Shown here piece after piece: positions 2,851-35,089 of a stretch of DNA of 64,000 bases. How positions within the stretch are numbered: position 1 is the stretch's first letter; each line of letters begins with the position of its first letter. Under the pieces are notes generated by a model. That model saw only the letters and a program-made list of their open reading frames with translations. It was not told the DNA's origin and did no database searches. Origin of the DNA: an uncultured Klebsiella sp. (GTDB taxonomy: Bacteria; Verrucomicrobiota; Verrucomicrobiia; Limisphaerales; SXTU01); assembly GCA_964496695.1 (NCBI GenBank), contig CAZCBE010000002.1:61861-125860 (forward strand), read 5' to 3'. Made by a program: the position numbers and the translations under genes.

Positions 2851-4194
2851 ATGAGACATCGGTTCCTCCCCCTCGCATTGCTGCTGCTCGCCGTCGTTGC
2901 CGCGCCTGCCGCCCCCGCGCCGTTTCCCTATGTGACCGCCAAGGCGTTCCACATCCCGCCGGAAACCACGACCGAGGAGTCGGGCTACTTCTCGCTGTGC
3001 GAAGGGCGCAACGGCAAGATTTACGTGGGCACTGCCGCGTATGGACGGAATGCGTTCCTCGTCGAGTTCGATCCGGCGACCGAGAAGCAGCGCATCGTGC
3101 TGGATGTCCACAAGCTCGTCGGCTTGCCGCTCACGCCCACCGGGTATGCCGCGCAGTCCAAGCTGCACACGCGCAATTTTGTCGGCCCGTCGGGGAAAAT
3201 TTACGTCGGGTCCAAGCAGGGTTATCCCACGGCGGAGGAGAAGGCCATGCTCAAACGCGGTGAGGCCATTCCGATTTATCGCGGTGGCTACGTGATCGTT
3301 TATGATCCGGCCACCGACACCGCCGAGAACCTCGGCATGCCGATGCCCATCGAGAGCAAGCCTCCTGGTGCCAAGGAAGGCGAAGGCGTGATTGACGTGA
3401 CGGCGGATGAGGCGCGCGGGCTGATCTACGTCATCACCTGCGAAGAGCAGCACTGGATGCTCTACGACGTGAAGACAAAGAAGTATCGCGAACTCGGTCC
3501 CATCCTCCGCGACCAGCCGAACACGCTGATTGACGCGCAAGGGCGGGGCACGGCGATTACGAAGGATTATCAGGTCGCGCGCTACAATCCCAAGACTGAC
3601 AAGGTCACCGTGGACCCGCTGCTGGTGGACGGCAAGCCGTTCGCCGAGGTGCTTGGCACGAACCGCGTGCATCCCGACTGGCGCATCACTCCGGACGGGA
3701 AGACCGCCTACGTGCAGGTGCTCAACGACCTCCGCATGTTCCGTGTGGATCTCTCCAGCAAGGAGGGGAAGCCGGTGGTCGTGACGAATCTCGGCAACCG
3801 GCTCGAAGGCGTGCATCCGGACTCGCGTGGTTCGATCAGCCTAGGCCCTGATGGACGCGTTTATTCCGCCTTGCGCGTGGACAACAAGACCGGTTTCGGT
3901 GCTGGCTATCTGCACCACCTCATCCGCCACGACCCGAAGAAGAAGAACTCCATGGAAGACCTCGGCGTGTTTTCGATCTCCAATCCCGGCTTCTTCGACT
4001 TCAAGGGCGTGCAGGCGAAGAACCCCGATGGCTCGCTGCGTCCGCGCCACGGCTACCACACCTTGCCCGATGGCACGCTCACGCCGCTCCACGTCATCAT
4101 GGGCATGATCGTCACCCGTGACGGCACCATCTACGCGACGACCATCTATCCCTATTCGCTGCTCAAGGTGGAGTCGGTGAAGGCGAAGAAGTAG
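2851..4194 (+). CDS. secreted hypothetical protein (possibly beta-propeller-like)
   Basis: 447-aa ORF with signal peptide MRHRFLPLALLLLAVVAAPAAPA. Repetitive GKIYVG / DGRVY-type strands. No family recognised. Confidence 0.6.
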   Translation: MRHRFLPLALLLLAVVAAPAAPAPFPYVTAKAFHIPPETTTEESGYFSLCEGRNGKIYVGTAAYGRNAFLVEFDPATEKQRIVLDVHKLVGLPLTPTGYAAQSKLHTRNFVGPSGKIYVGSKQGYPTAEEKAMLKRGEAIPIYRGGYVIVYDPATDTAENLGMPMPIESKPPGAKEGEGVIDVTADEARGLIYVITCEEQHWMLYDVKTKKYRELGPILRDQPNTLIDAQGRGTAITKDYQVARYNPKTDKVTVDPLLVDGKPFAEVLGTNRVHPDWRITPDGKTAYVQVLNDLRMFRVDLSSKEGKPVVVTNLGNRLEGVHPDSRGSISLGPDGRVYSALRVDNKTGFGAGYLHHLIRHDPKKKNSMEDLGVFSISNPGFFDFKGVQAKNPDGSLRPRHGYHTLPDGTLTPLHVIMGMIVTRDGTIYATTIYPYSLLKVESVKAKK

Positions 4195-10381: not shown

Positions 10382-13300
10382 TGAGATTTGTCCTTCCTTT
10401 GGTGGCAGTCACGCTGGCGTTGTCGGCTGGCCTTATGCATGCGGCCCCGGCCGATTATCAAAAGGACATCCGCCCGCTGCTCAACGAGTTCTGCCTCAAG
10501 TGTCACTCGACCAAGGATCAGAAGGGCGACCTCGACTTGGAGCGGTTCAAGTCGCTGGACTCTGTGAAGCGCGACGCCAAGGTCTGGCTGCAGGTGGAGG
10601 AACAGATCGAACTGGGTGAGATGCCCCCCAAGGACAAGCCACAGCTCTCCAGCGCACAGAAAACCCAGCTCATGACGTGGTTGCGCGGCACGCTCAATGA
10701 CATCGCGAAAGCCAATGCGGGCGACCCCGGGCCGGTTGTCCTCCGCCGCCTCTCGAACGCCGAATACACCTATACCGTGCGCGACCTCACGGGCGTCGAG
10801 TCCCTCGATCCCGCGCGCGAGTTCCCTGTGGATGGCGCGGCGGGCGAGGGCTTCTCGAACACCGGCGCGGCGCTCGTCATGTCGCCCGCGCTGCTCACGA
10901 AGTATCTTGATGCCGCGAAAGACATCGCCGCGCACGCCGTGCTGCTGCCCGATGGCGTGCGGTTCTCGCCGAGCACTTCACAGCGTGACTGGAGCGAGGA
11001 GCGGCTCACGGCCATCCGCACGTTCTATGCGCAGTTCACTGAGAAGGGCGGCGGCACGGCGGTCAATCTGCAGGGCATCAAGTTCGACACCAAGGACGGC
11101 GGCGTGCTGCCGCTTGAAAAGTATCTTGCTGCGACGCTCGCCGAGCGCGATGTGTTGGCTACCAAGCGCAAGTCAATTGCCGACATCGCCAAGGAACGCG
11201 GCCTCAACGCGAAATATCTCGGCACGCTCTGGGCCGCGCTCAACGGCACGGAGCCTTCGCTGGTGCTGGATCTCGTCCGTGCCCAATGGCGCGCCGCGAA
11301 GCCTGCGGACGCGTCGGCCCTGGTCGCCTCGATCGCGCAGTGGCAGCGGACCTTGTGGCGCTTCACGACCGTCGGTCACATCGGCAAGCGCAACGGTCCG
11401 TTGGCGTGGCAGGTTCCGGTGCTTCCACTCGCCGCCTCGCAGGAGATACGAGTGAAGCTCGCCGCGCCAAGCAACGGCAACGAAGTCACCTTTTATCTCC
11501 TCGCGTCCGATGCGGGCGACGGCAACGGGCACGATTTCGCCGTCTGGGAAAATCCGCGGCTGATCGCGCCTGGCCGGCCCGACCTGCGCCTGCGTGATGT
11601 GCGCGAGGCGGTCCTGGCCTTCCAATCGCAGCGCGAGCGCGTCGCGGCCAGCGCGGCCAAGTGTCTTGCGGCGGCGGCGGAAGCCGCGGCGATGTCTGAC
11701 CGTGCCGCTGTTGACCAGCTCGCGCAGAAGCACGGCGTCGAGCCAACGCTGTTGGTGGCGTGGCTGGATTATCTCGGCATCGGCGGCGGGCCGGTGCGGG
11801 TGACCTCGCACATGACCAAGAAGGCCGAGAACGCGAACAATTACGATTTCATCAAGGGCTGGACCGGTGCGGATGCATTGAGCGTGCTGGCGAATTCGAG
11901 CGACCAGGCCGTGCGTATTCCCGGCCACATGAAGCCGCACAGCGTCGGCGTGCATCCGTCGCCGAAGCTGCGCGTGTGCGTCGGTTGGAGCAGCCTGGTC
12001 GCGGCGACCGTGCGCGTCGAGGCTGCGGTGCAGCACGCGCATCCCGAGTGCGGCAACGGGGTCACCTGGGCTGTGGAACTTCGGCGGGGCAGCACGCGCC
12101 AGCGCCTGGCCGCCGGCACCGCCCAGGGCGCGAAGGAAGTGAAAGTTCCGCTGGTGGAAAACCTCGCGGTGCAGCCGGGCGACCTGCTCTCGCTCGTCAT
12201 CGGCCCGCGCGACGGCAACCACTCGTGCGACATGACGGCAGTGGACCTGGACATCAAGAGCGCCGACGGCAAGCAGTGGAACGTCGCACGCGACGTCTCG
12301 CCGAACATCCTCGCTGGCAACCCGCACGCGGACGGCTTGGGCAACCCCGGCGTCTGGCATTTCTACAGCGAGCCGGACAGCGGTGGCGGGGCGGACTCCG
12401 TGATCCCGGCCGGCTCGGTCTTGGCGAAATGGCGTGCTGCCACTGACGCGAGGGAGCGAAGCCGGCTGGCGGACGAGGTGCAAAGGTTGTTGCAGGGCAA
12501 TGCGGCTGGTCTGGCCAAGGGTGCGCCTGATCTGGTCCTTCATCGCGAACTTACGTCGCTTGGCGGCCCGCTGTTCAAGCACCAACCGGGTAGCAGCCGA
12601 CGTGAGGAGGCTCCGATCAAACCCCGCGATAATCAGAGCCTCCTCACGTCGGCTGCTACCTGGGGTCTTGATCCCGCGCTCTTCGGCAAGCACCCGAATG
12701 GCACCGCCCTTCCGGCGGCGAATCTTTGCGTGCGCGCGCCTTCGCTCATTGAGGTGCGTCTGCCCGCAGCGTTGGTCGAAGGCTGCGAGTTCGTGACCAC
12801 CGCCACCTTGCACCGCGAGACCGGGGCGGAAGGCAGCGTGCAAATGCAGGTGCTGACGAACAAGCCTGCGAGCGCCTCCGGCCTCGCGGCCGGCACGGCG
12901 ACGGTGCTGGGCGGCAAGAGCACCTGGTCGGACGGCGAGCGGCCCGTGGGGTCGGACGCGCCCATTCTCGTGGCGGAAGGCAGCGCGTCACGCAAACGCA
13001 TCGAGACGGCGCTCGACGGGTTCCGCCAGCTCTTCCCCGCCGCACTCTGCTACACGAAGATCGTGCCAGTGGACGAGGTCGTGACCCTCACGCTCTATTA
13101 TCGTGAGGATGACCAGCTTCGCCGCCTGATGCTGGATGATGCGCAGGCCGCCGAGCTGGACCGGCTCTGGGCCGAACTGCACTTTGTCAGTCACAGCCCG
13201 CTCAAGCTCGTGGATGCCTTCGAGCAGCTCTGGCAGTTCGCCACGCAGGACGCGGACCCGAGCGCCTTCACGCCGATGCGCGAGCCGATCAAGCAGCGCG

Positions 13301-27743: not shown

Positions 27744-28031
27744 AGTGCGGGTGACGATGCGGCCGGGACGGGTGAAGGTGCTACGCCGAAAGTCCCGCGT
27801 TCCGATGCTTTTGTGACGTGCCACGGGAGAACTGAAATTCTTTTGGCCACCAAGAGGCGCAAGATGGCGCAAGATGGAAATCCAGCCGGATGCCGGGGTG
27901 AAAACCTGATGGCAACCACGGAATACCCGGAATACGCGGAAGCGGAAAGAGACAGCGTCGGACCGGTCTTCATGCTTGAGGACATGGTGTGTCGGTTGGC
28001 AAAGGGGGAACACCGTCCGGCGCTTCCGTGT

Positions 28032-28193
28032 GGGCGCATCTTGACACTTCCCCCGAAGCTGAGCCGGCGCGGACGCCGGCGACACGGCCCGCGGGACGCG
28101 GGCGCTACGTAGCGCCGGCCTCCGGCCGGCCGTGTCGCAAGCGTCCTCGCTTGCCCGGTGGGGCGAGGTCGGGGGCAGTGTCAAGATGCGCCC
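28032..28193. mobile_element. 162-bp MITE-like element: 25-nt terminal inverted repeats plus a 9-bp direct flanking duplication
   Basis: Left TIR 28032-28056 GGGCGCATCTTGACACTTCCCCCGA. The right TIR 28169-28193 is its reverse complement at 24/25. CTTCCGTGT abuts both ends (28023-28031 and 28194-28202). No ORF inside. Confidence 0.7.
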
Positions 28194-28331
28194 CTTCCGT
28201 GTGTTCCGCGTATTCCGTGGTTCTCAATCGCTGGTTTTGGGCTGGACTGGTGGCGGACCGGAGGGTCCGCCGCACGGGTGCGCCGCTCAACCTGGCTCAT
28301 AGCCGATAGACCTTTGCCACGCTTTGACATG

Positions 28332-28342
28332 GACTATGAGTC
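28332..28342 (+). promoter_or_regulatory. C-box-like operator GACTatgAGTC abutting the C-gene ATG
   Basis: Perfect GACT-N3-AGTC palindrome ending one base before ATG 28343. TTGACA lies at 28324-28329 and a degenerate palindrome GCTcatAGC at 28295-28303. Confidence 0.5.
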
Positions 28343-28570
28343 ATGTTGAAACGTGACAAGGTTCTCTCCGCCCTCGGGCTGAACGTCCGCAGGAATCGCG
28401 AGGCCCGCGAGTTCACCCAGGAGAAGCTGTCGGAGAAATCGGGCCTCGATCCCACCTACATCAGCGACATTGAGCGGGGCCGGCGCAACCCCGGCATCAA
28501 AAACGTCGCCAAGCTGGCCAAGGCGCTGGGGCTCACCACGGCGGAACTCTGCCAAGGGGTGGACGCGTGA
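28343..28570 (+). CDS. XRE-family HTH protein resembling R-M controller (C) proteins
   Basis: 75 aa. ...EFTQEKLSEKSGLDPTYISDIERGRRNPGIKNVAKLAKALGL... is close in pattern to C.Esp1396I/C.PvuII-type regulators. Confidence 0.75.
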   Translation: MLKRDKVLSALGLNVRRNREAREFTQEKLSEKSGLDPTYISDIERGRRNPGIKNVAKLAKALGLTTAELCQGVDA

Positions 28571-28588
28571 AGGGGAAAGCCAAGTCCG

Positions 28589-28662
28589 CGGAGCGCCGGT
28601 CTCCGACCCGGCGTGTGGATGTTCGGCCCCCGGAACTCGCCGGGTCGGAGACCGGCGCTCCG
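28589..28662. repeat. perfect 25-nt inverted repeat (CGGAGCGCCGGTCTCCGACCCGGCG) with 24-nt loop, just downstream of the C gene
   Basis: 28589-28613 is the exact reverse complement of 28638-28662. Same family as 26169/26335. It may act as a terminator hairpin, although no U-tract follows. Confidence 0.85.
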
Positions 28663-28741
28663 GCCCTCCGCGAGGAGCCCGTGCCCTACCGCACCGCCTC
28701 CGAATCTTCTCCCTCTCCGCTCCGGGGAGGGCCGGGGAGAG

Positions 28742-28828
28742 GTGGTGGCGCTCCGTTTCATTGACCTCTTCTGCGGCATCGGCGGCTTCCGCCTCGCCTT
28801 CGAGCACGCGGGTGCGCACTGCGTCTTC
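28742..28828 (+). pseudogene. dcm: remnant of a C5-cytosine DNA methyltransferase (N-terminus and motif I only)
   Basis: GTG 28742 onward encodes VVALRFIDLFCGIGGFRLAFEHAGAHCVF, containing motif I DLFxGxGG. Recognisable MTase sequence ends before the convergent HNH gene stop at 28860. Confidence 0.7.
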
Positions 28829-28859
28829 CTTGGCGATTGGGCGGACTCAGCCATCAGGT

Positions 28860-29657
28860 CTACAGCTTGCGGAAAATCTTGGCGCGATGCTCTGAAAGGA
28901 ATGCCAAATCAGGTAACGCCGCATCATCGGGCAGCCACAACGGCTGGCCAGCATAAGCGCCAAAGTTCTCGGAGACTGAACGCTGAGAAAGTTCGAACTT
29001 CAACTTCGGCGAGAGCAGAAGTCGCAGTGTGTCGTCGAAAGCAATCAAGCCACGGTCAAATGCCGCATCGTGCAAGCGTGACAGGGACAAACCGTTGCGG
29101 ACATTAAGCCGCTCGGTGGGATGAGCACCCCAAGGTAAAATGTGCGATGCCACCAACAGCTCGCGAATTGCCAGCCCAGTTATGCCGCATCGTCCGCCGA
29201 AGTTGTTCAGCACCGCATCGCGAAAATACTCCTGTCCACGGCGCAGCTTTACGCTCGCTGTTGTTTCTGTAGGCCCAATCGGTGGGCGTTTGCAGACGCG
29301 GACACCTTCCTTCGGTAACACTTCAAGGTCGCTGCTTTCATCCACGTCGAACAGGTTTCGCAGAGCTTCCTCGCTCACTGGCACCGCCTCATTGAGGTTT
29401 TGGTGGAACTCGTTCCACACCGTCCGGTCGAGGGCACTTGCACCCTCAAGCCCTTTGATGCCGCGCAGCTTCAATGCAGGGTCCAGCGAAGCGAAGTTGC
29501 ACAGCTTCATGGCGACGCTGTTGGGACCACGTTCGAGCTTGTCTGCCAACGCCATAATCGCTGGGTGTCGCGCGTGAAGCTGACCGAAGGTCAGCTTGTG
29601 GTAGAGATTCAAGGTGACGAGCAATTCACCGTGGGTCCATCGTTTTCCGGCTGCCAT
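28860..29657 (-). CDS. HNH endonuclease (HNH_2 / COG3440-type predicted restriction endonuclease)
   Basis: Start taken at ATG 29657 (MAAGKRWTHGELLVTLNLY...). N-terminal ...GPNSVAMKLCNFASLDP... C-terminal RCGITGLAIRELLVASHILPW...NGLSLSRLHDAAFDRGLIAFDD is the H-N-H core. Confidence 0.8.
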   Translation of the reverse strand: MAAGKRWTHGELLVTLNLYHKLTFGQLHARHPAIMALADKLERGPNSVAMKLCNFASLDPALKLRGIKGLEGASALDRTVWNEFHQNLNEAVPVSEEALRNLFDVDESSDLEVLPKEGVRVCKRPPIGPTETTASVKLRRGQEYFRDAVLNNFGGRCGITGLAIRELLVASHILPWGAHPTERLNVRNGLSLSRLHDAAFDRGLIAFDDTLRLLLSPKLKFELSQRSVSENFGAYAGQPLWLPDDAALPDLAFLSEHRAKIFRKL

Positions 29658-29746
29658 GTTTTGACGGTGCCAGGTTCGCAGTGATGAGCGAAGGAGGAAA
29701 GTGCTTGCCGCCGAAAGCAAACCTGGCCAGGTAGTTCTGCCGAGCT

Positions 29747-30415
29747 ATGTCTAACGAATCTGAACTCGGCACTGAACCACTCGACCCCGCCGCTGTCTTC
29801 GCCTGTGCCCTTTCGCTGCGCGAGGCGTGCCTGAAGCGCGCGAAAACAAACCCGCAACTGAACTTGAGCGAGAACTACAACGGCATGGATCAGTTTTTGC
29901 GCGAGCTGATGCGAGTCGCCAATCTGTTCGAGGCATGGGCTTGTGCCCATGTTGAGTTCGAGGAGATGAGCGAGGTTTGGCCGTCTCTGATGGAGGACAA
30001 ATTCGGCGACGCTTGCCTGGAGTCCACGCTTCCGAGCGCGCTGGCTCAGTTCGATGATTCCGACTGCTTGCGGGTAGCACTCCGGTTGCGATTGCCCATA
30101 CAAGCAGACGATAAGCTTCGCGTGCCCATTGATGTTCGCGCACCCAATCCGATTGGGGGCTCGGATTTCCAAGCGTTTCGGATTCAAACCGTGCGCAATG
30201 AGCTTGATGAAGGCAATGCAGTTGCGTTCACCACCGATGATGACCCGTTCGATGAGGAGTTTGGGCCACCGTATTTCGCACTGTATGGCGTGGGCTATGA
30301 TGGATTGTCAGAACACATCGCCGACCGAAACACTTATTCAGATGCCTTGAGCCTTGCTCAGAAGCTTGCGCCCGGTGTGGCACTTCCACTCAAACCGATT
30401 TGTTTCACCACATGA
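29747..30415 (+). CDS. hypothetical acidic protein, no recognisable family
   Basis: 222-aa ORF divergent from the HNH gene (89-bp spacer). Rich in D/E (DDDPFDEEF, FDDSDC). More protein-like than the overlapping antisense ORF 29609-30187. Confidence 0.5.
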   Translation: MSNESELGTEPLDPAAVFACALSLREACLKRAKTNPQLNLSENYNGMDQFLRELMRVANLFEAWACAHVEFEEMSEVWPSLMEDKFGDACLESTLPSALAQFDDSDCLRVALRLRLPIQADDKLRVPIDVRAPNPIGGSDFQAFRIQTVRNELDEGNAVAFTTDDDPFDEEFGPPYFALYGVGYDGLSEHIADRNTYSDALSLAQKLAPGVALPLKPICFTT

Positions 30416-30552
30416 GCGACCGACGGTCTGTTTTGCAGTTGAAGGTTCAACGTTGAGCGTTGGAGGTTGGAAGTTCACCGTTCCTCACCACGCCTGACGT
30501 CTTCACCAAGGCCAAGGCTGTTGAGGCGCGTGGCCGGCCGGGACACCCCGCG

Positions 30553-30885
30553 TCATTTCTTGCCGGACTTGTGGCTGCGCGGTTGGTTGCCCCGCTCGGT
30601 CGTGCGACTCGTTGCGCGGGGAGCCGAGCGACGCGGTTCCTCGCGCCGGATCTCAGCGCGGCTGGGCTTGGCTTGGGAGACGGGGGCGGAGCTTCTGGTG
30701 GTGGCTGGTTGCTTAGCTTTCACGCCCTGACCATATCCCTCCTTCTTAAGCGGCACAACCGCCCGTTTGGCAAAGGTTGGAAGGAGCGGGAGAAGAACGG
30801 CGGTGATTTCGAGCCAATCACGACCGTGATGTTCGTCTCCCTCGTTCGGAAATTTCAGCTTCCACAGCGTCGCGTAAATGCTCAT
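30553..30885 (-). CDS. hypothetical small protein with basic, low-complexity C-terminus
   Basis: 110-aa ORF (MSIYATLWKLKFPNEGDEHHGRDWLEITA...). It sits between two copies of the vsr 5' end. It may be a gene fragment. Confidence 0.3.
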   Translation of the reverse strand: MSIYATLWKLKFPNEGDEHHGRDWLEITAVLLPLLPTFAKRAVVPLKKEGYGQGVKAKQPATTRSSAPVSQAKPSRAEIRREEPRRSAPRATSRTTERGNQPRSHKSGKK

Positions 30886-30946
30886 GGATTATGCGTAGCG
30901 TTTCGCCGTTGTTTCGACGAGCGGGCAACTTGCCAACCATCACGCG

Positions 30947-31522
30947 ATGCCAGATGTCTTCACCAAGGCCAAACGGTCGGCGGTCATGGCGCGCATCCGG
31001 TCGCGGGGGAACCAGGCGACGGAGCTGGTGCTGGTGCGGGTGTTCCGCGCGCATGGGATCACGGGGTGGAGGAGGCATCTGAAGTTGAGAGTGGCGGAGT
31101 TGAGAGTTGAGCGTCGGAAGCGGGTGCGTTCGTCCGCGCTCGGCGGCTCTCAACCCTCAACTTTCAACCCTCAACTCACCGTTCGTCCTGACTTCGTGTT
31201 TCCCAAGCTGCGGGTGGCGGTGTTTGTGGACGGGTGCTTCTGGCATGCGTGTCCGCAGCACGCGACGCAGCCCAAGGGGAATGCGGCGTTCTGGCGCGCG
31301 AAGCTGGCGCGGAATCAGGCGCGGGACCGGCTGGTGACGCGGACGTTGCGGCGGGCGGGGTGGCGGGTGCTGCGGCTCTGGGAGCATGAGCTGGCCCGGA
31401 AGCGTGCGGCGCGGTTGGTGGCGCGGTTGCGGCGGGTGTTGGCGGGTGTGCCTGCGAAACCCGCACAGACAGCGACACCTCACCCCAACCCCTCTCCCCG
31501 GTCGAGGCGGAGAGGGGCCTGA
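30947..31522 (+). CDS. vsr: very-short-patch repair endonuclease (Vsr) carrying an in-frame repeat insertion and a repeat-derived tail
   Basis: MPDVFTKAKRSAVMARIRSRGNQATE... then RPDFVFPKLRVAVFVDGCFWHACP...FWRAKLARNQARDR...GWRVLRLWEHEL matches E. coli Vsr block by block (...SKNMRAI...PDFVV...IFTHGCFWH...FW..K...N..RD...GWRVL.VWE). Confidence 0.8.
   Translation: MPDVFTKAKRSAVMARIRSRGNQATELVLVRVFRAHGITGWRRHLKLRVAELRVERRKRVRSSALGGSQPSTFNPQLTVRPDFVFPKLRVAVFVDGCFWHACPQHATQPKGNAAFWRAKLARNQARDRLVTRTLRRAGWRVLRLWEHELARKRAARLVARLRRVLAGVPAKPAQTATPHPNPSPRSRRRGA
31083..31183. repeat. about 96-nt GTTGAGAG/CTCAACCC-type palindromic repeat inside vsr
   Basis: Encodes RVAELRVERRKRVRSSALGGSQPSTFNPQLTV between the Vsr N-terminal helix and the PDFVF catalytic block. 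The arms GAGTTGAGAGTTGAG / CTCAACCCTCAACT(T/C) are imperfect complements. A related unit lies at 30440-30480. Confidence 0.7.
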
Positions 31523-31612
31523 GATGGGCCCGCGAAACACGCCAAAAGACGCGAATGAGGTGAAGAGAACGCGGAGTTTGGAACTCGGAATGCGGAATGA
31601 AATAGGACCGCG

Positions 31613-31859
31613 CGAATGGGGAGGGCACCGCAGAGGCGGGACGGGCGCAGAGGTGTTGCGGAATGCGGAATGTGACGCCTCCGCATGAGCCTGTGCCGGC
31701 GACTTGCAGTCGCCGTCCGTGGGCCACAGCAGGACGAACCAGCTTCAAGCTGTCCACCCGCAACGCGGCGGCTGCAAGCCGCCGGCACGGGGACCGGGCG
31801 AACGGGAGGGCACCGCAGAGGCGGGTCGGGCGCAGAGGAGTTGCGGAATGTGACGCCTC
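31613..31859. repeat. two direct copies of a ~61-69-bp repeat (GGGAGGGCACCGCAGAGGCGGG.CGGGCGCAGAGG.GTTGCGGAATGTGACGCCTC)
   Basis: Copy 1 is 31613-31681 (with an extra GCGGAAT). Copy 2 is 31799-31859. Identity is about 90%. They are flanked by CTCTCCCC...GGGGAGAG-type hairpins at 31473-31519 and 31852-31897. Confidence 0.85.
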
Positions 31860-31943
31860 TCCCCAACCCCTCTCCCCGAGCGAGGCGCAGAGGGGGCAAT
31901 CGCACGGTTACAGCGGGCGTTGGGGCGTTTCGTTCATCCATGT

Positions 31944-32636
31944 TTATCGGTGTGCATCCGTAGTTGGATCGGCTGGGGAAATTCGGTTCAGGTCGGCGAG
32001 GGCGGTGTGGGCGGGGGCGGCGAGCCAGCGCTCGAAGGCGGCTTTGCGCGCGGGCCAGTCGGTGTCGAGCATCGCGAACCAGGTGGTGTCGCGGTTCTGG
32101 TTTTTCACGACCATGTGCTGGCGGAAGCAGCCTTCGTATTGAAAGCCCAGGCGCAACGCCGCGGCGCGGCTGCGGGCGTTTTCCGCGTTGCACTTCCACT
32201 CGACGCGCCGGTAGCCGAGGTCGTCGAAGAGGTGGCGCAGCAGGAGGAAGACGGACTCGGTGTTGACGGGCGTGCGTTGTGCGGCGAGGCCATACCAGAT
32301 GTGGCCGAGTTCGGCGGTGCCGTGCGCCGGCGTGATGCGCAGGATGGAGATCATGCCGATGCGTTCGCCAGTGGGGTGGCGGCGCACGGTGAAGAAGAGC
32401 GGGTCGGTGCTGGCCTGCGCGGTGTGGAGCCAGGCACGGAAGGCGTCGAGATCCGCATAGGGGCCGTGGGTGAGGTAGCGCCAGATTTCCTGCGCGGCGA
32501 GGGGCGTGTGGCTGGCGTGATAGAGTTCGGCGGCGTCGTCGTCCGCGTGGAGCGGGGTGAGGCGGACGTGGCGGCCGGCGAGGGGTTGGTGCGCGGGCAG
32601 GGGCCAAGTGGCGGGGAAGGGCAGGGCGATGCTCAT
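31944..32636 (-). CDS. GNAT family N-acetyltransferase (RimJ/RimL-like, Acetyltransf_3)
   Basis: Start at ATG 32636 (MSIALPFPATWPLPAHQPLAGRHVRLTPL...). ...ERIGMISILRITPAHGTAELGHIWYG...RRVEWKCNAENARSRAAALRLGFQYEG. Confidence 0.8.
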   Translation of the reverse strand: MSIALPFPATWPLPAHQPLAGRHVRLTPLHADDDAAELYHASHTPLAAQEIWRYLTHGPYADLDAFRAWLHTAQASTDPLFFTVRRHPTGERIGMISILRITPAHGTAELGHIWYGLAAQRTPVNTESVFLLLRHLFDDLGYRRVEWKCNAENARSRAAALRLGFQYEGCFRQHMVVKNQNRDTTWFAMLDTDWPARKAAFERWLAAPAHTALADLNRISPADPTTDAHR

Positions 32637-32885
32637 GGGCGAGGAGTTCAGAGGAAACGCGGGTGGATGGCTACGCGAAATATCCCTGCTTTCAATGCTT
32701 TCGTGCGTGCGGGCCGGTGGAGCAGCAGAACTGGCAATGGGGATTGAACCCGAACGCCGAAGTGGAACAGGGTAGCACAAGCCACCGGCCTGTGCCGTCC
32801 GGCCACTGGCCGGACGGAACGGCGAGACGGCCACCTATTAAATTTGATGCTCCGCTGTTTTCGGTGGACAGCGGAGGCCGGCAGG

Positions 32886-33101
32886 GAAATTCCAAACTTC
32901 AAGGTTCAAGCTCCAAAGAAATCCCAAACCTCAAATTCCAATCGTTCAGCGCGCCTCGCAGCCAGCCCTTCCGCCCAGGTTGGCACCTTGATTAAAGGGC
33001 TGGGATGGTGCGGCTTGTCCGCCCAGGGCCAGGCCACGCTTTCCCTTGGAATTTGGACCTTGGAGTTTCTTTGGAAGTTGGAACTTGGGATTTGGAGCTT
33101 C
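32886..33101. repeat. imperfect inverted repeat of CCAAA/CTCCAAAGAAA-rich ~55-nt arms
   Basis: 32886-32941 (..TTCAAGCTCCAAAGAAATCCCAAACCTCAAATTCCAA) pairs with 33046-33101 (TTGGAATTTGGACCTTGGAGTTTCTTTGGAAGTTGG...). Identity is about 80% over the inner 35 nt. Confidence 0.8.
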
Positions 33102-33229
33102 TTCCACCCGCCATTCCACTGAAAACAGCGGGGAGCCTTAAAGGTTCCTCGCTGTTTTCGGTGGAAGGAGGCTGCGCGGTGGTTGGCTGCGCCAAGCTCA
33201 CCGGAGACGCGCGCCGGGCGTGCATTAGT

Positions 33230-33429
33230 CCCGGAGGGCCGTCCGACAATAGCCCAGCGATTCATCGCTGGGTTGAGCCGGGGCCGCTGGCCAGTCCCGC
33301 AGGGACGAAAGAGCTTCTCCACGCGGGATGCCCACGAAGAGCCATTCTGCCGTCCCTCCGGGACTCCCCATCATTGCCGCCACAGCTTCCAGCGATGAAT
33401 CGCTGGGCTATTCTCTGTCGCCCTCCGGG
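33230..33429. repeat. two inverted copies of a repeat centred on the hairpin CCCAGCGAttcaTCGCTGGG
   Basis: Hairpins at 33253-33272 and 33389-33407. The flanks CCCGGAGGGC..GACA..ATAGCCCAGCGA are shared in opposite orientation. Confidence 0.8.
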
Positions 33430-33585
33430 CTGAACCCAAGGCCATGCCATCGGAAACTGCGGAGCCCCGGGATTTTTCTGACCCCATGTTTCTGACTTCC
33501 GTGCTTATGAGGCATGCCTCCGCACTACGGAGGTTTGGATCGCCAAGGAACTGCGTCGCATGAATAAAAAAGTCCAGAAAAAATG

Positions 33586-33613
33586 TTGACTCTTTTCCGC
33601 TGCGGCATAGTTT
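33586..33613 (+). promoter_or_regulatory. sigma70-like promoter (TTGACT-N16-TAGTTT) with an A-rich upstream tract
   Basis: TTGACT at 33586-33591 and TAGTTT at 33608-33613, preceded by GAATAAAAAAGTCCAGAAAAAATG. It is the only good promoter match I can see upstream of tRNA-Thr/tuf. Confidence 0.45.
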
Positions 33614-33654
33614 GTGCGCCCGGTTCACAACAACCGTCAGCAAGCTTGAAAGCA

Positions 33655-33704
33655 CATCGGCCCGGTTGCAGCAGCAGGGCAAACAGGGCCGATGGGTTTT
33701 TTTT
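33655..33704 (+). terminator. intrinsic-terminator-like hairpin plus T8
   Basis: CATCGGCCC (33655-33663) pairs with GGGCCGATG (33686-33694) around a 22-nt loop, followed by GG and TTTTTTTT (33697-33704). Confidence 0.55.
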
Positions 33705-33747
33705 CCCCTGACGGGGAGATTTGGATCGGACGGGTGAAAGTAATTTC

Positions 33748-33823
<76 letters not shown>

Positions 33824-33889
33824 GATTTTAGGCCGGTCGGCAACGGTCGGACATAGCAGCAGAGTCAACCACTAACTAGAACATCGCAA

Positions 33890-35089
33890 ATGGCAAAAGA
33901 AGCCTTCAAACGGACGAAACCCCACGTGAACGTCGGCACCATCGGCCACGTTGACCACGGCAAATCCACCCTCACGGCCTGCATCGTGGCCGTGCAGAAC
34001 CGCAAGGGCCTGGCACCCGCAATTTCCTACGCCGACATCACCAAGGGCGGCACGGTGCGCGACGAGTCCAAGACCGTGACCATCGCGGCCTCGCACGTCG
34101 AATACGAGTCCGACCTGCGCCACTACGCGCACGTGGACTGCCCCGGCCACGCTGACTACGTCAAGAACATGATCACCGGCGCCGCCCAGATGGACGGCGC
34201 GATCCTGGTCGTGTCCGCCGCGGACGGCCCGATGCCGCAGACGCGCGAGCACATCCTCCTGGCCCGCCAGGTCGGCGTGCCCGCCATCGTCGTCTTCCTG
34301 AACAAGGTGGACCTCGTGGACGACGCGGAACTGCTCGACCTCGTCGAGATGGAAATCCGCGACCTCCTGACGAAGTATCAGTTCCCCGGTGACAAGACCC
34401 CGATCATCCGGGGCAGTGCCACCGCCGCCATGGCCGGCAAGCCGGAAGGCGAGAAGGCCGTGCAGGACCTGCTCACCGCGATTGACACGTTCATCCCGGA
34501 GCCCGTGCGCGAGATCGACAAGCCGTTCCTCATGTGCATCGAGGACGTGTTCAACATCGAAGGTCGCGGCACCGTCGTGACCGGTCGTGTGGAGCGCGGC
34601 ATCCTCAAGAAGATGGACGAAGTCGAAATCGTCGGCATCAAGGACACGCGCAAGACCACGGCGACGGACATCGAAATGTTCCGCAAGCTCCTCGACGAAG
34701 CCCGCTCGGGTGAAAACGTCGGTGTGCTGCTCCGCGGCACGAAGAAGGAAGAAGTCGAGCGCGGCATGGTGCTGGCCAAGCCGGGCAGCATCAAGCCCTA
34801 CACGAAGTTCAAGGCCGAGGTTTACGTCCTCACCAAGGACGAGGGTGGCCGCCACACGCCGTTCTTCAACAAGTATCGTCCCCAGTTCTACTTCCGCACC
34901 TCGGACGTGACCGGCAATGTCACGCTCCCGGCCGGAGTGGAAATGGTGATGCCCGGCGACAACGTCTCCGTGGACATCGAACTCATCGTCGGTGTCGCCA
35001 TGGAAAAGGGCCAGCGCTTCGCGATCCGCGAAGGTGGCCGCACCATCGGCGCCGGCCGCGTGAGCGACATCATCGCGACCGTCGCTTAA
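33890..35089 (+). CDS. tuf: elongation factor Tu
   Basis: 399 aa. [30 protein letters not shown]..., [34 protein letters not shown]. Confidence 0.98.

Follow-up and report, generated by a model that had tools for sequence, protein, structure and literature searches.

Palindromic repeats that lie in frame within protein-coding genes are already known. According to the summary of Ogata et al. (2000) given in PMC3733652, the Rickettsia palindromic elements (RPEs) are found in frame in protein genes of Rickettsia. Di Nocera et al. (2013, PMC3733652) have shown that repetitive extragenic palindromes (REPs) occur in open reading frames (ORFs), often those of replication and repair genes, and that the hosts include the verrucomicrobium Opitutus terrae. 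It is also reported there that two Xanthomonas species carry different REPs at roughly one position in recB, and that some REPs extend over the ends and stop codons of genes (PMC3733652). Here, we explored a related case in the vsr gene at 30947..31522 (+ strand) of a 64,000-nt stretch of verrucomicrobial DNA (contig CAZCBE010000002.1), the whole of which is called the window below. We found that this gene contains an in-frame insert encoded by a palindromic repeat, that the insert is not private to this genome, and that the turn of Vsr in which it lies is a lineage-wide site of repeats. In our opinion it is likely (probability of about 0.62) that a REP/RPE-like repeat is tolerated in this surface turn and acts there as a persistent landing pad. 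The locus is a clear case of repeats within a protein, although there are precedents for it.

The insert comprises codons 45-79 (LKLRV...QLTV; 31079..31183, + strand). Alignment to uninserted orthologues of the form GWRR-H-QPVFG-KPDF showed that the 35 codons from L45 to V79 replace 5 codons (e.g., QPVFG). The preliminary description of this DNA had proposed an in-frame insertion of 32 codons; the in-frame insert stands, and its size is now revised to a net gain of 30 codons (35 for 5). The segment is encoded by an imperfect palindrome at 31084-31177, which contains the inverted repeats I2, I4 and I7-I9 and has arms made of GTTGAGR heptads. The 5' arm (31084..31121) consists of a GTTGAGA unit, an 8-nt spacer, two GTTGAGR units and an inner stem. 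It is followed by the hairpin loop and inner stem (31122..31145) and by the 3' arm, (CTCAACY)n, at 31146..31177, which is delimited by inverted-repeat, motif and period-7 evidence. The period-7 arrays found by TRF at 31083-31111 and 31149-31176 lie in the two arms. The net charge of the insert, read from the sequence, is about +6.

We calculated the folding energy of the palindrome for RNA (-48.6 kcal/mol, z = -3.1) and for DNA (-23.7 kcal/mol, z = -2.2). The window has a GC content of 65%, and its 100-nt segments have a mean fold energy of -34 (sd 7.8), so that the energy of the palindrome is no outlier. Because strong folds are common in such a GC-rich window, the recurrence of the hairpin elsewhere is better evidence than its energy. 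With at most 2 mismatches allowed, GTTGAGRGTTGAR has 7 matches in the 64 kb, all of which fall in the insert or in an intergenic heptad unit at 30438..30486 (GTTGAAG/GTTCAAC/GTTGAGC...; D10, D19). These matches agree with the earlier proposal that the insert derives from a palindrome of the same heptad type as the intergenic unit, which had been placed at 30440-30480. The comparison of plus and minus strands revealed no consistent asymmetry in fold energy and no G:U bias toward the mRNA strand, which suggests a palindrome at the DNA level rather than an mRNA-specific structure.

Several known identities were considered for the hairpin. A terminator scan found neither an intrinsic terminator nor a terminator-like T-run at the hairpin, and a classical terminator was thus ruled out. 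An Rfam 15 scan of 28000-34000 gave only a tRNA and two Acido-Lenti-1 copies, with no family at 31084-31177 or 30438-30486 (E <= 1). When the insert was compared with the uninserted codon sequences, no direct repeat was found to flank it, so there is no target-site duplication. A miniature inverted-repeat transposable element was rejected for the hairpin, the whole element being a hairpin and not a core between terminal inverted repeats. PARCEL elements (PMC2996958) were also rejected, as these are tandem 25-residue tracts in surface proteins and not single hairpins.

We investigated the same site in two samples of relatives. One consists of the 106 closest Vsr homologues (>=60% identity), and the other of 80 vsr loci, one genome per species, nearly all from Verrucomicrobiota metagenome-assembled genomes. 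An insert of 10-43 amino acids is located at exactly the same codon in 103 of the 106 homologues, so the insert is not an event peculiar to this genome. Uninserted alleles do exist among the relatives. P0118 is a homologue without insert at 66% identity, and at 48 of the 80 species loci the stretch from GWRR to PDF has only 5-6 residues plus K/R (e.g., GWRR-HQPVFG-KPDFV); the stretch is longer at the other 32. It could be objected that distant orthologues carry the segment as a native loop without palindromy. This objection fails, since the orthologous segments are themselves nucleotide palindromes.

The inserts at the Vsr site of the 106 homologues fall into about 10 hairpin families. About 20 homologues have the same GTTGAGR-type hairpin as the window, with the peptide LKLRVGELRVESRK...SQPSTFNSQLTV and a recognisably homologous loop. 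Other inserts are built from the heptads GCGGAAY, GTTSAAG, GTCGAGA, GTTTCGA and CCGAAAT, from a GC-rich palindrome ('GRAALPRGPNI.AAQQRRPT'), from an 'SSRRKEAH...ASSPRRL' element or, in some homologues, from a 'TSPRPSPQRGEG' element of the same family as the C-terminal tail of the window protein. At least 15 of the inserts are nested or chimeric; for example, a TSP element may lie within the loop of a heptad hairpin or take the place of one arm. The long inserts all fold strongly (-27 to -55 kcal/mol), and the short ones (+8 to +12 aa) consist of a single arm with no real fold (-4 to -15 kcal/mol). In some orthologues, additional repeat copies stand in frame behind WEH(E/D)L and at the C-terminal end. 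In all inserted forms V-[RK] precedes PDF, and in uninserted forms G-[KR] does.

Two relatives are informative about how the site changes. L002, whose flanks are 97-98% identical to the window, has another hairpin of equal length within a divergent patch of about 180 nt (31024-31200), and this looks like allelic replacement through recombination. In L035, vsr is frameshifted by a nested element inside the hairpin, which means that the insertions are not invariably in frame.

The rates of change within the hairpin were estimated from the orthologues that share it (L003, L004, L005 and L119). Against these, the synonymous divergence (pS) of the Vsr core is 0.41-0.44, and its dN/dS is 0.17-0.30. 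Inside the insert, the nonsynonymous divergence (pN) is about equal to pS (approximately 0.16-0.21). The loop of the window differs from the others by 0.33-0.46 and thus drifts near the neutral rate. The arms differ by only 0.06-0.13, and the three codon positions are alike (0.08/0.11/0.09). Change in the heptad arms is therefore restrained at the level of the nucleotides, to about a quarter of the synonymous rate. Because pN and pS are similar and arm divergence is equal across codon positions, there is no sign of selection on the peptide.

To describe the family outside vsr, we scanned metagenomes for the exact pattern GTTGAGRGTTGAG-N10-40-CTCAACYCTCAAC and obtained at least 120 stretches, 80 of which were examined as loci. 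All but one (79/80) are outside vsr, the sole vsr being that of L119. No open frame crosses the hairpin at 16 of the 80 loci, and at most of the others it is only a few codons away from the end of an ORF; the dispersed copies are mostly intergenic. The GC content of the host contigs ranges from 0.37 to 0.68. The copies have 2 to 6 heptad units, and their loops are not conserved. In-frame copies were found in RecG (L126), in a protein kinase between DFG and the P+1 loop (L160), in a GH67 C-terminal domain (L150) and in a MurF-alanine racemase (L105/L145), and in each of them the Pfam domain spans the insert. Two further hosts were recognised by eye: L155 would encode a DnaE-like polymerase, and L130 another kinase.

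All in-gene copies translate as (E/K)LRVE...STLN(S/P)QL. Each GTTGAGA contains a TGA; our check of the frames showed that one frame (LRVE) is open across two consecutive units and none across three, and that the complementary arm TCTCAAC is open in all frames. Hence the in-gene copies are limited to the LRVE frame and have no more than two perfect units in succession. The arm in the window, with one unit, an 8-nt spacer and two units, fits this rule of a stop-free frame.

Period-7 arrays of any sequence are enriched in 863 kb of related loci, where we counted 69 arrays at lag 7, versus 5-6 for lags 8-10. The spacers that flank the arms were analysed in 75 dispersed copies, and no covariation is claimed from them: true and shuffled partners paired at 4.5 and 3.7 of 8 nt, and their energies differed only slightly (-13.7 vs -12.0 kcal/mol). 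When a profile of the peptide encoded by the hairpin was run against 5.8 billion proteins, the matches were all very short ORF calls (32-76 aa, E 1e-3 to 10) that cover intergenic hairpins, and host proteins could not be counted in this way. The search did reveal the repeat in the filamentous cyanobacteria Microcoleus and Tychonema, where small ORFs are called over hairpins of the GTTGAGA type. The entries with the GTTGAGR hairpin from outside Verrucomicrobiota are L105/L145, on human-gut contigs with a GC content of 0.44-0.46, and P0127, P0152, P0161 and P0163. Because it is present in low-GC gut contigs and in filamentous cyanobacteria, the repeat class is not restricted to Verrucomicrobiota.

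How does this hairpin compare with the described systems? As far as RPEs are summarised in PMC3733652, the two are alike in having intergenic copies as well as in-frame copies in conserved, apparently functional proteins, in adding what is here a predicted surface segment and in using one frame. RPEs, whose sequence is presumably unrelated to that of the hairpin, have a consensus of about 100-150 bp in that summary, whereas the arms here are tandem heptads of variable number and the loops are not conserved. The hosts also differ (Rickettsia for RPEs, free-living Verrucomicrobiota and other phyla for the hairpin), and a single Vsr site with turnover of many families is unlike RPEs; we call the hairpin an RPE analogue, not a member. 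Like the GTAG/CGTC REPs, it is found in replication and repair genes (here those of Vsr, RecG and a DnaE-like polymerase), and the repeat-derived tail of Vsr has its parallel in REPs at gene ends. However, a REP is a single palindrome of 20-40 bp, and the arms here are heptad arrays. No consistent GTAG/CGTC tag was found in the flanks of 80 hairpin copies. Because this tag test failed and no target-site duplication was seen, we treat the hairpin as working like REPs and RPEs and not as one of them.

A third comparison is with the short tandemly repeated repetitive (STRR) sequences of cyanobacteria. These are said to go back to Mazel et al. in 1990 and reportedly consist of tandem 7-nt units scattered through the intergenic DNA of heterocystous hosts. 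The likeness lies in the tandem heptanucleotide arrays, with period 7 and enrichment at lag 7. The differences are that GTTGAGR is not known as one of the STRR1-3 units, that inverted pairs are here translated inside enzymes, and that the host is no cyanobacterium. We found no earlier description of the heptad-arm hairpin class, of the rule of a single open frame, or of one codon as a long-lived landing pad for many families.

The host protein was examined in the same way. The ORF at 30947..31522 encodes 191 amino acids in a frame that is intact including the stop codon, and HMM and structure matches identify it as vsr. It scores 63.9 bits with Pfam Vsr PF03852 (cut-off 27), in a match broken into two stretches by the insert, and 100.1 with NCBIfam TIGR00632 (cut-off 97.85), which covers only residues 76-148. 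It can be aligned to the E. coli Vsr structures 1cw0/1vsr from about residue 71 on (E of about 1e-13). An AlphaFold2 (AF2) model built from 106 sequences has a predicted local distance difference test score (pLDDT) of 87-94 in the core, 61-66 in the tail and 52-69 in the insert, where short strands appear at 46-48, 53-55 and 78-79. The best PDB matches of the model in Foldseek are 1cw0_A (prob 1.00, TMt 0.66) and 1vsr. The positions D82, C97, F98, W99, H100, C102, H105, W116, D127 and H147 are invariant in the 106 homologues. They include the catalytic Asp of the PD motif, the intercalating Phe-Trp pair with a second Trp, and the zinc ligands, and their E. coli counterparts in the alignment are D51, F67, W68, W86, D97, C66... 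E. coli Vsr (1CW0/1VSR) thus has the fold, catalytic PD, FW pair and Zn site in common with the window protein, and differs in having a 6-residue turn in place of 35 residues. The window ORF is a Vsr of restriction-endonuclease-like fold, as the HMM, catalytic motifs and predicted fold together confirm.

The Vsr core is under purifying selection. Its dN/dS is 0.15-0.30 against orthologues, with 0.19 against L002, which also has no dcm, and pN is lower than pS in each half of the gene separately (codons 1-44 and codons 80-149). The protein looks functional and is predicted to be a T:G mismatch nicking endonuclease. The independent Logan assembly L001 is identical to the window at 3017 of 3017 nt, so the open frame is no assembly slip, and the earlier statement that the frame is kept through both repeats holds good.

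The second of these repeats gives the end of the protein. It is a 44-nt repeat at 31474..31517 that contains the CCTCTCCCC...GGAGAGGGG hairpin, and it encodes the last 15 codons or so, just ahead of the stop. A copy of 44 nt with 89% identity (D3) lies in intergenic DNA at 31852..31895, in accordance with the previous view that the tail derives from another repeat. Related peptides, 'TSPRPSPQRGEG' or 'STPHPGPLPVRGGEG', occur at three sites in Vsr orthologues.

Linkage to a C5-cytosine methyltransferase gene is usual in the Vsr family, though it does not define it. E. coli vsr overlaps dcm. In the window, dcm (C5-cytosine methyltransferase) is a 5' remnant at 28751..28927 (+ strand) that matches positions 1-35 of the 324 in the PF00145 profile and keeps motif I (DLFCGIGGF) only. 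No other C5-methyltransferase (C5-MTase) was found in the 64 kb, either by tblastn with 7 related C5-MTases (E < 0.01) or as an ORF with a PCQ motif. The claim that dcm is gone is thus right in that no intact dcm exists in the 64 kb, and wrong in that the 5' stub remains. Upstream of vsr, the order is a restriction-modification control protein (28343-28570; PADLOC Control_protein, 1e-16), the dcm stub, a convergent and intact-looking HNH_2 nuclease (28860-29720; PADLOC HNH, 5.6e-81), a 222-aa ORF, the heptad unit, an old vsr start and a 110-aa ORF on the minus strand. The C-terminus of the nuclease has a weak match, below the cut-off, to a phosphorothioate/ScoMcrA-type restriction endonuclease. 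The 222-aa ORF belongs to no family, and the same slot holds an MvaI/BcnI-family restriction enzyme in L003 and L004. The cassette region extends over 28343-30415, and GC content falls to 0.53-0.58 across 28850-30500. L003 and L004 have the same layout as the window, with dcm fragments that are longer yet still broken. From this shared layout, the broken dcm and the restriction gene missing in the window, the region is recognised as a decayed cassette of control protein, methyltransferase, restriction enzyme and Vsr (C-M-R-V). In each of the four loci with this HNH gene dcm is broken differently, and it is a possibility that a modification-dependent nuclease displaced dcm.

A crude motif test gave no C5-MTase-like ORF within about 6 kb of vsr at 56 of the 80 related loci. 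We found no evident link between the insert and an adjacent C5-MTase, which about 25% of the inserted and 33% of the uninserted loci have. In Caulobacter, VsrA works with the unlinked methyltransferase ScmA, and Vsr without its methylation leads to an SOS response and a fitness cost (PMC12907096). The window gene resembles that of VsrA in lacking an adjacent C5-methyltransferase gene, and no repeat insertion is reported for VsrA (PMC12907096). Because an unlinked functional vsr is documented in Caulobacter, missing linkage does not show a missing partner. The window Vsr is kept by selection and probably serves a methyltransferase encoded elsewhere.

Three insert-bearing loci have an ORF for an IS200-like tyrosine transposase, similar to REP-associated tyrosine transposases (RAYT), within 6 kb of vsr (L004 2778-3239, L022 4801-5256 and L035 44-490). 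These ORFs are 77-80% identical mutually and score 66 bits against a cut-off of 55 with NCBIfam transpos_IS200, and in L004 the gene interrupts dcm. The 64-kb window itself has no RAYT or IS200-like transposase gene. The IS200/RAYT-like protein is a candidate mobiliser of the hairpins.

These observations can be put together as follows. A palindromic repeat would have colonised the tight turn between the first two core beta-strands of Vsr, just ahead of the catalytic Pro-Asp. It would belong to a dispersed REP/RPE-like hairpin class with tandem 7-nt arms (GTTGAGR / YCTCAAC) and variable loops, whose in-gene copies may survive solely in the stop-free frame and with interrupted arms. Translation of the insert would give a basic excursion of some 30 residues on the surface, with little order and without effect on the fold. 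Once a hairpin stood at this permissive turn, later elements could insert into it or beside it while older parts were deleted; it is proposed that different, nested and chimeric repeats are found at the same Vsr codon because the turn serves as such a landing pad. Gene conversion with other copies may maintain the heptad arms, or else the element itself may be constrained in its sequence or structure. The C-terminal tail would represent read-through of another repeat at the 3' end of the gene, and vsr would have been left behind in a decayed C-M-R-V cassette with dcm as a stub.

Several results weigh against this explanation. GTTGAGR occurs at just two sites within the 64 kb, and neither a mobilising enzyme nor a target-site duplication has been identified for the hairpin. 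Since loops and unit numbers vary between copies, transposition of a defined element by copy and paste is a putative mechanism at most, and the repeats may have arisen locally by slippage and template switching. The V-[RK] shared by the inserted forms could mean one ancient gain with adaptation at the protein level. In a neighbour-joining tree of the 130-aa insert-free Vsr core, inserted forms are scattered among uninserted ones, but the tree is poorly resolved; because this core is too short, it does not decide between several gains and one gain with losses. Arm conservation is the observation worst explained by a purely passive passenger; a function of the arms, or their active upkeep, would account for the slow change no less well.

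One rival idea is that the hairpin, as DNA or RNA within the gene, acts in cis to throttle or time the expression of Vsr, an enzyme that would be costly when out of balance with methylation. Over-production of Vsr is mutagenic in E. coli, which counts for this idea, as does the rate of the arms, about four-fold below the synonymous rate at whatever codon position, beside a drifting loop. In every family the long inserts form strong hairpins, although their sequences differ, and Vsr without methylation is harmful in Caulobacter (PMC12907096). However, the heptad sequence itself is conserved, beyond what pairing needs, the one-arm short inserts do not fold, and we saw no strand asymmetry or G:U bias favouring mRNA, no terminator-like T-run and no Rfam match. 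The same hairpin is scattered between genes and within genes other than vsr, so that it has no tie to the regulation of vsr, and we consider a cis-acting role unlikely. Slightly less credit is due to an exapted protein arm, that is, a basic two-stranded beta-ribbon near the active site that aids DNA or partner binding, with the palindromy as a relic. Such an arm would suit an insert that is near-universal in the close subfamily (103/106), has a net charge of about +6 and contains short strands in the AF2 model. It would also suit the stereotyped junctions, where hydrophobic and polar residues alternate after GWRR[HQ] and [FL]-x-V-[RK] stands before PDF (G-[KR] when uninserted). It fits poorly with an insert whose sequence, length and repeat family vary freely, whose pN is close to pS with arm divergence equal at three codon positions, and whose pLDDT is only 52-69. 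Moreover, 48 of the 80 related Vsr loci manage without the insert, and the same peptide is found inside unrelated enzymes.

It might further be supposed that vsr is a decaying pseudogene, unneeded after the loss of dcm and gathering repeats, or an assembly artefact. The dcm stub, the absence from the window of the restriction gene of related cassettes, and the frameshift within the hairpin of L035 point in this direction. They are outweighed by a frame that is open across both repeats and identical in an independent assembly, by a core dN/dS of 0.19 even against the dcm-less L002, by the conservation of all catalytic and Zn positions, and by HMM scores above the curated cut-offs, so that decay or artefact is very improbable. 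A repeat tolerated in the surface turn of Vsr and serving as a landing pad is therefore the explanation that we prefer.

Other repeats surround the gene. In L003, an orthologue of the unit at 30438..30486 immediately precedes the start codon of vsr. Next to the unit in the window, 30487..30540 (+ strand) is the remnant of an older vsr 5' end, as the repeat D7 and an alignment with L002 and L003 indicate. The vsr start is duplicated by a direct repeat of 24 nt (30492-30515 vs 30949-30972, 92% identical), and the upstream start copy, together with the heptad unit, has its orthologue in the true start region of vsr in L003. About 457 bp separate the two copies and contain the 110-aa minus-strand ORF (30553-30885). 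This ORF matches no family, and a promoter-like site (30917-30888) belongs to it. This segment looks, from the sequence comparison, like an insertion or duplication into the vsr 5' end that is common to L002. In the spacers shortly after vsr there is a cluster of other heptad arrays, (GCGGAAT)n and (TTGGAAY)n, at 31578-31600, 31657-31672, 31842-31859 and 33044-33100; the GCGGAAY type is found in frame at the Vsr site of many orthologues (RNAECGMR, RIAERGxRN). Near-perfect long hairpins of other families, with -62 to -78 kcal/mol per 100 nt, are located at 28071-28170, 28581-28680, 31691-31790, 33101-33170 and 12585-12660. The last is of the GTAGCAGCCGACGTGAGGAGGCTC type, and its translation, SSRRKEAH...ASSPRRL, lies in frame in Vsr of L022 and P0055. 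Two Acido-Lenti-1 RNA motifs (RF01687; gathering threshold 37) were detected at 33227-33272 (- strand, 44.8 bits) and 33388-33431 (+ strand, 37.5 bits), both in the repeat-rich spacer ahead of a tRNA (33748-33820) and tuf.

The orphan state of vsr is the less important aspect of this locus, an unlinked functional vsr being known already. Its value is as a natural experiment, both clean and datable, on the entry of selfish-looking DNA hairpins into proteins. In one small enzyme we see the ancestral form without insert, the one turn that permits insertion, and different, nested or half-deleted repeats at that codon in dozens of lineages. The arms are conserved at the nucleotide level and the peptide is free, so that constraint on DNA can be separated from constraint on protein, and this conservation points to a mechanism that maintains or mobilises a repeat class widespread in Verrucomicrobiota and beyond. 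Such inserts make proteins longer and break up HMM matches, and they should be expected whenever proteins of these phyla are annotated or their structures predicted. A tentative extension, which we hold to be rather doubtful at present, is that the heptad-arm hairpins (GTTGAGR and its sisters) form an undescribed, actively maintained class across phyla. In such a class, arms would be kept slow by IS200/RAYT-like recognition or by hairpin-templated conversion, genes would be entered only through the single stop-free frame, and new insertions would go preferentially into existing hairpins. If this is true, the class would create permanent landing pads with turnover of repeat families in proteins, notably in Vsr, RecG and DnaE.

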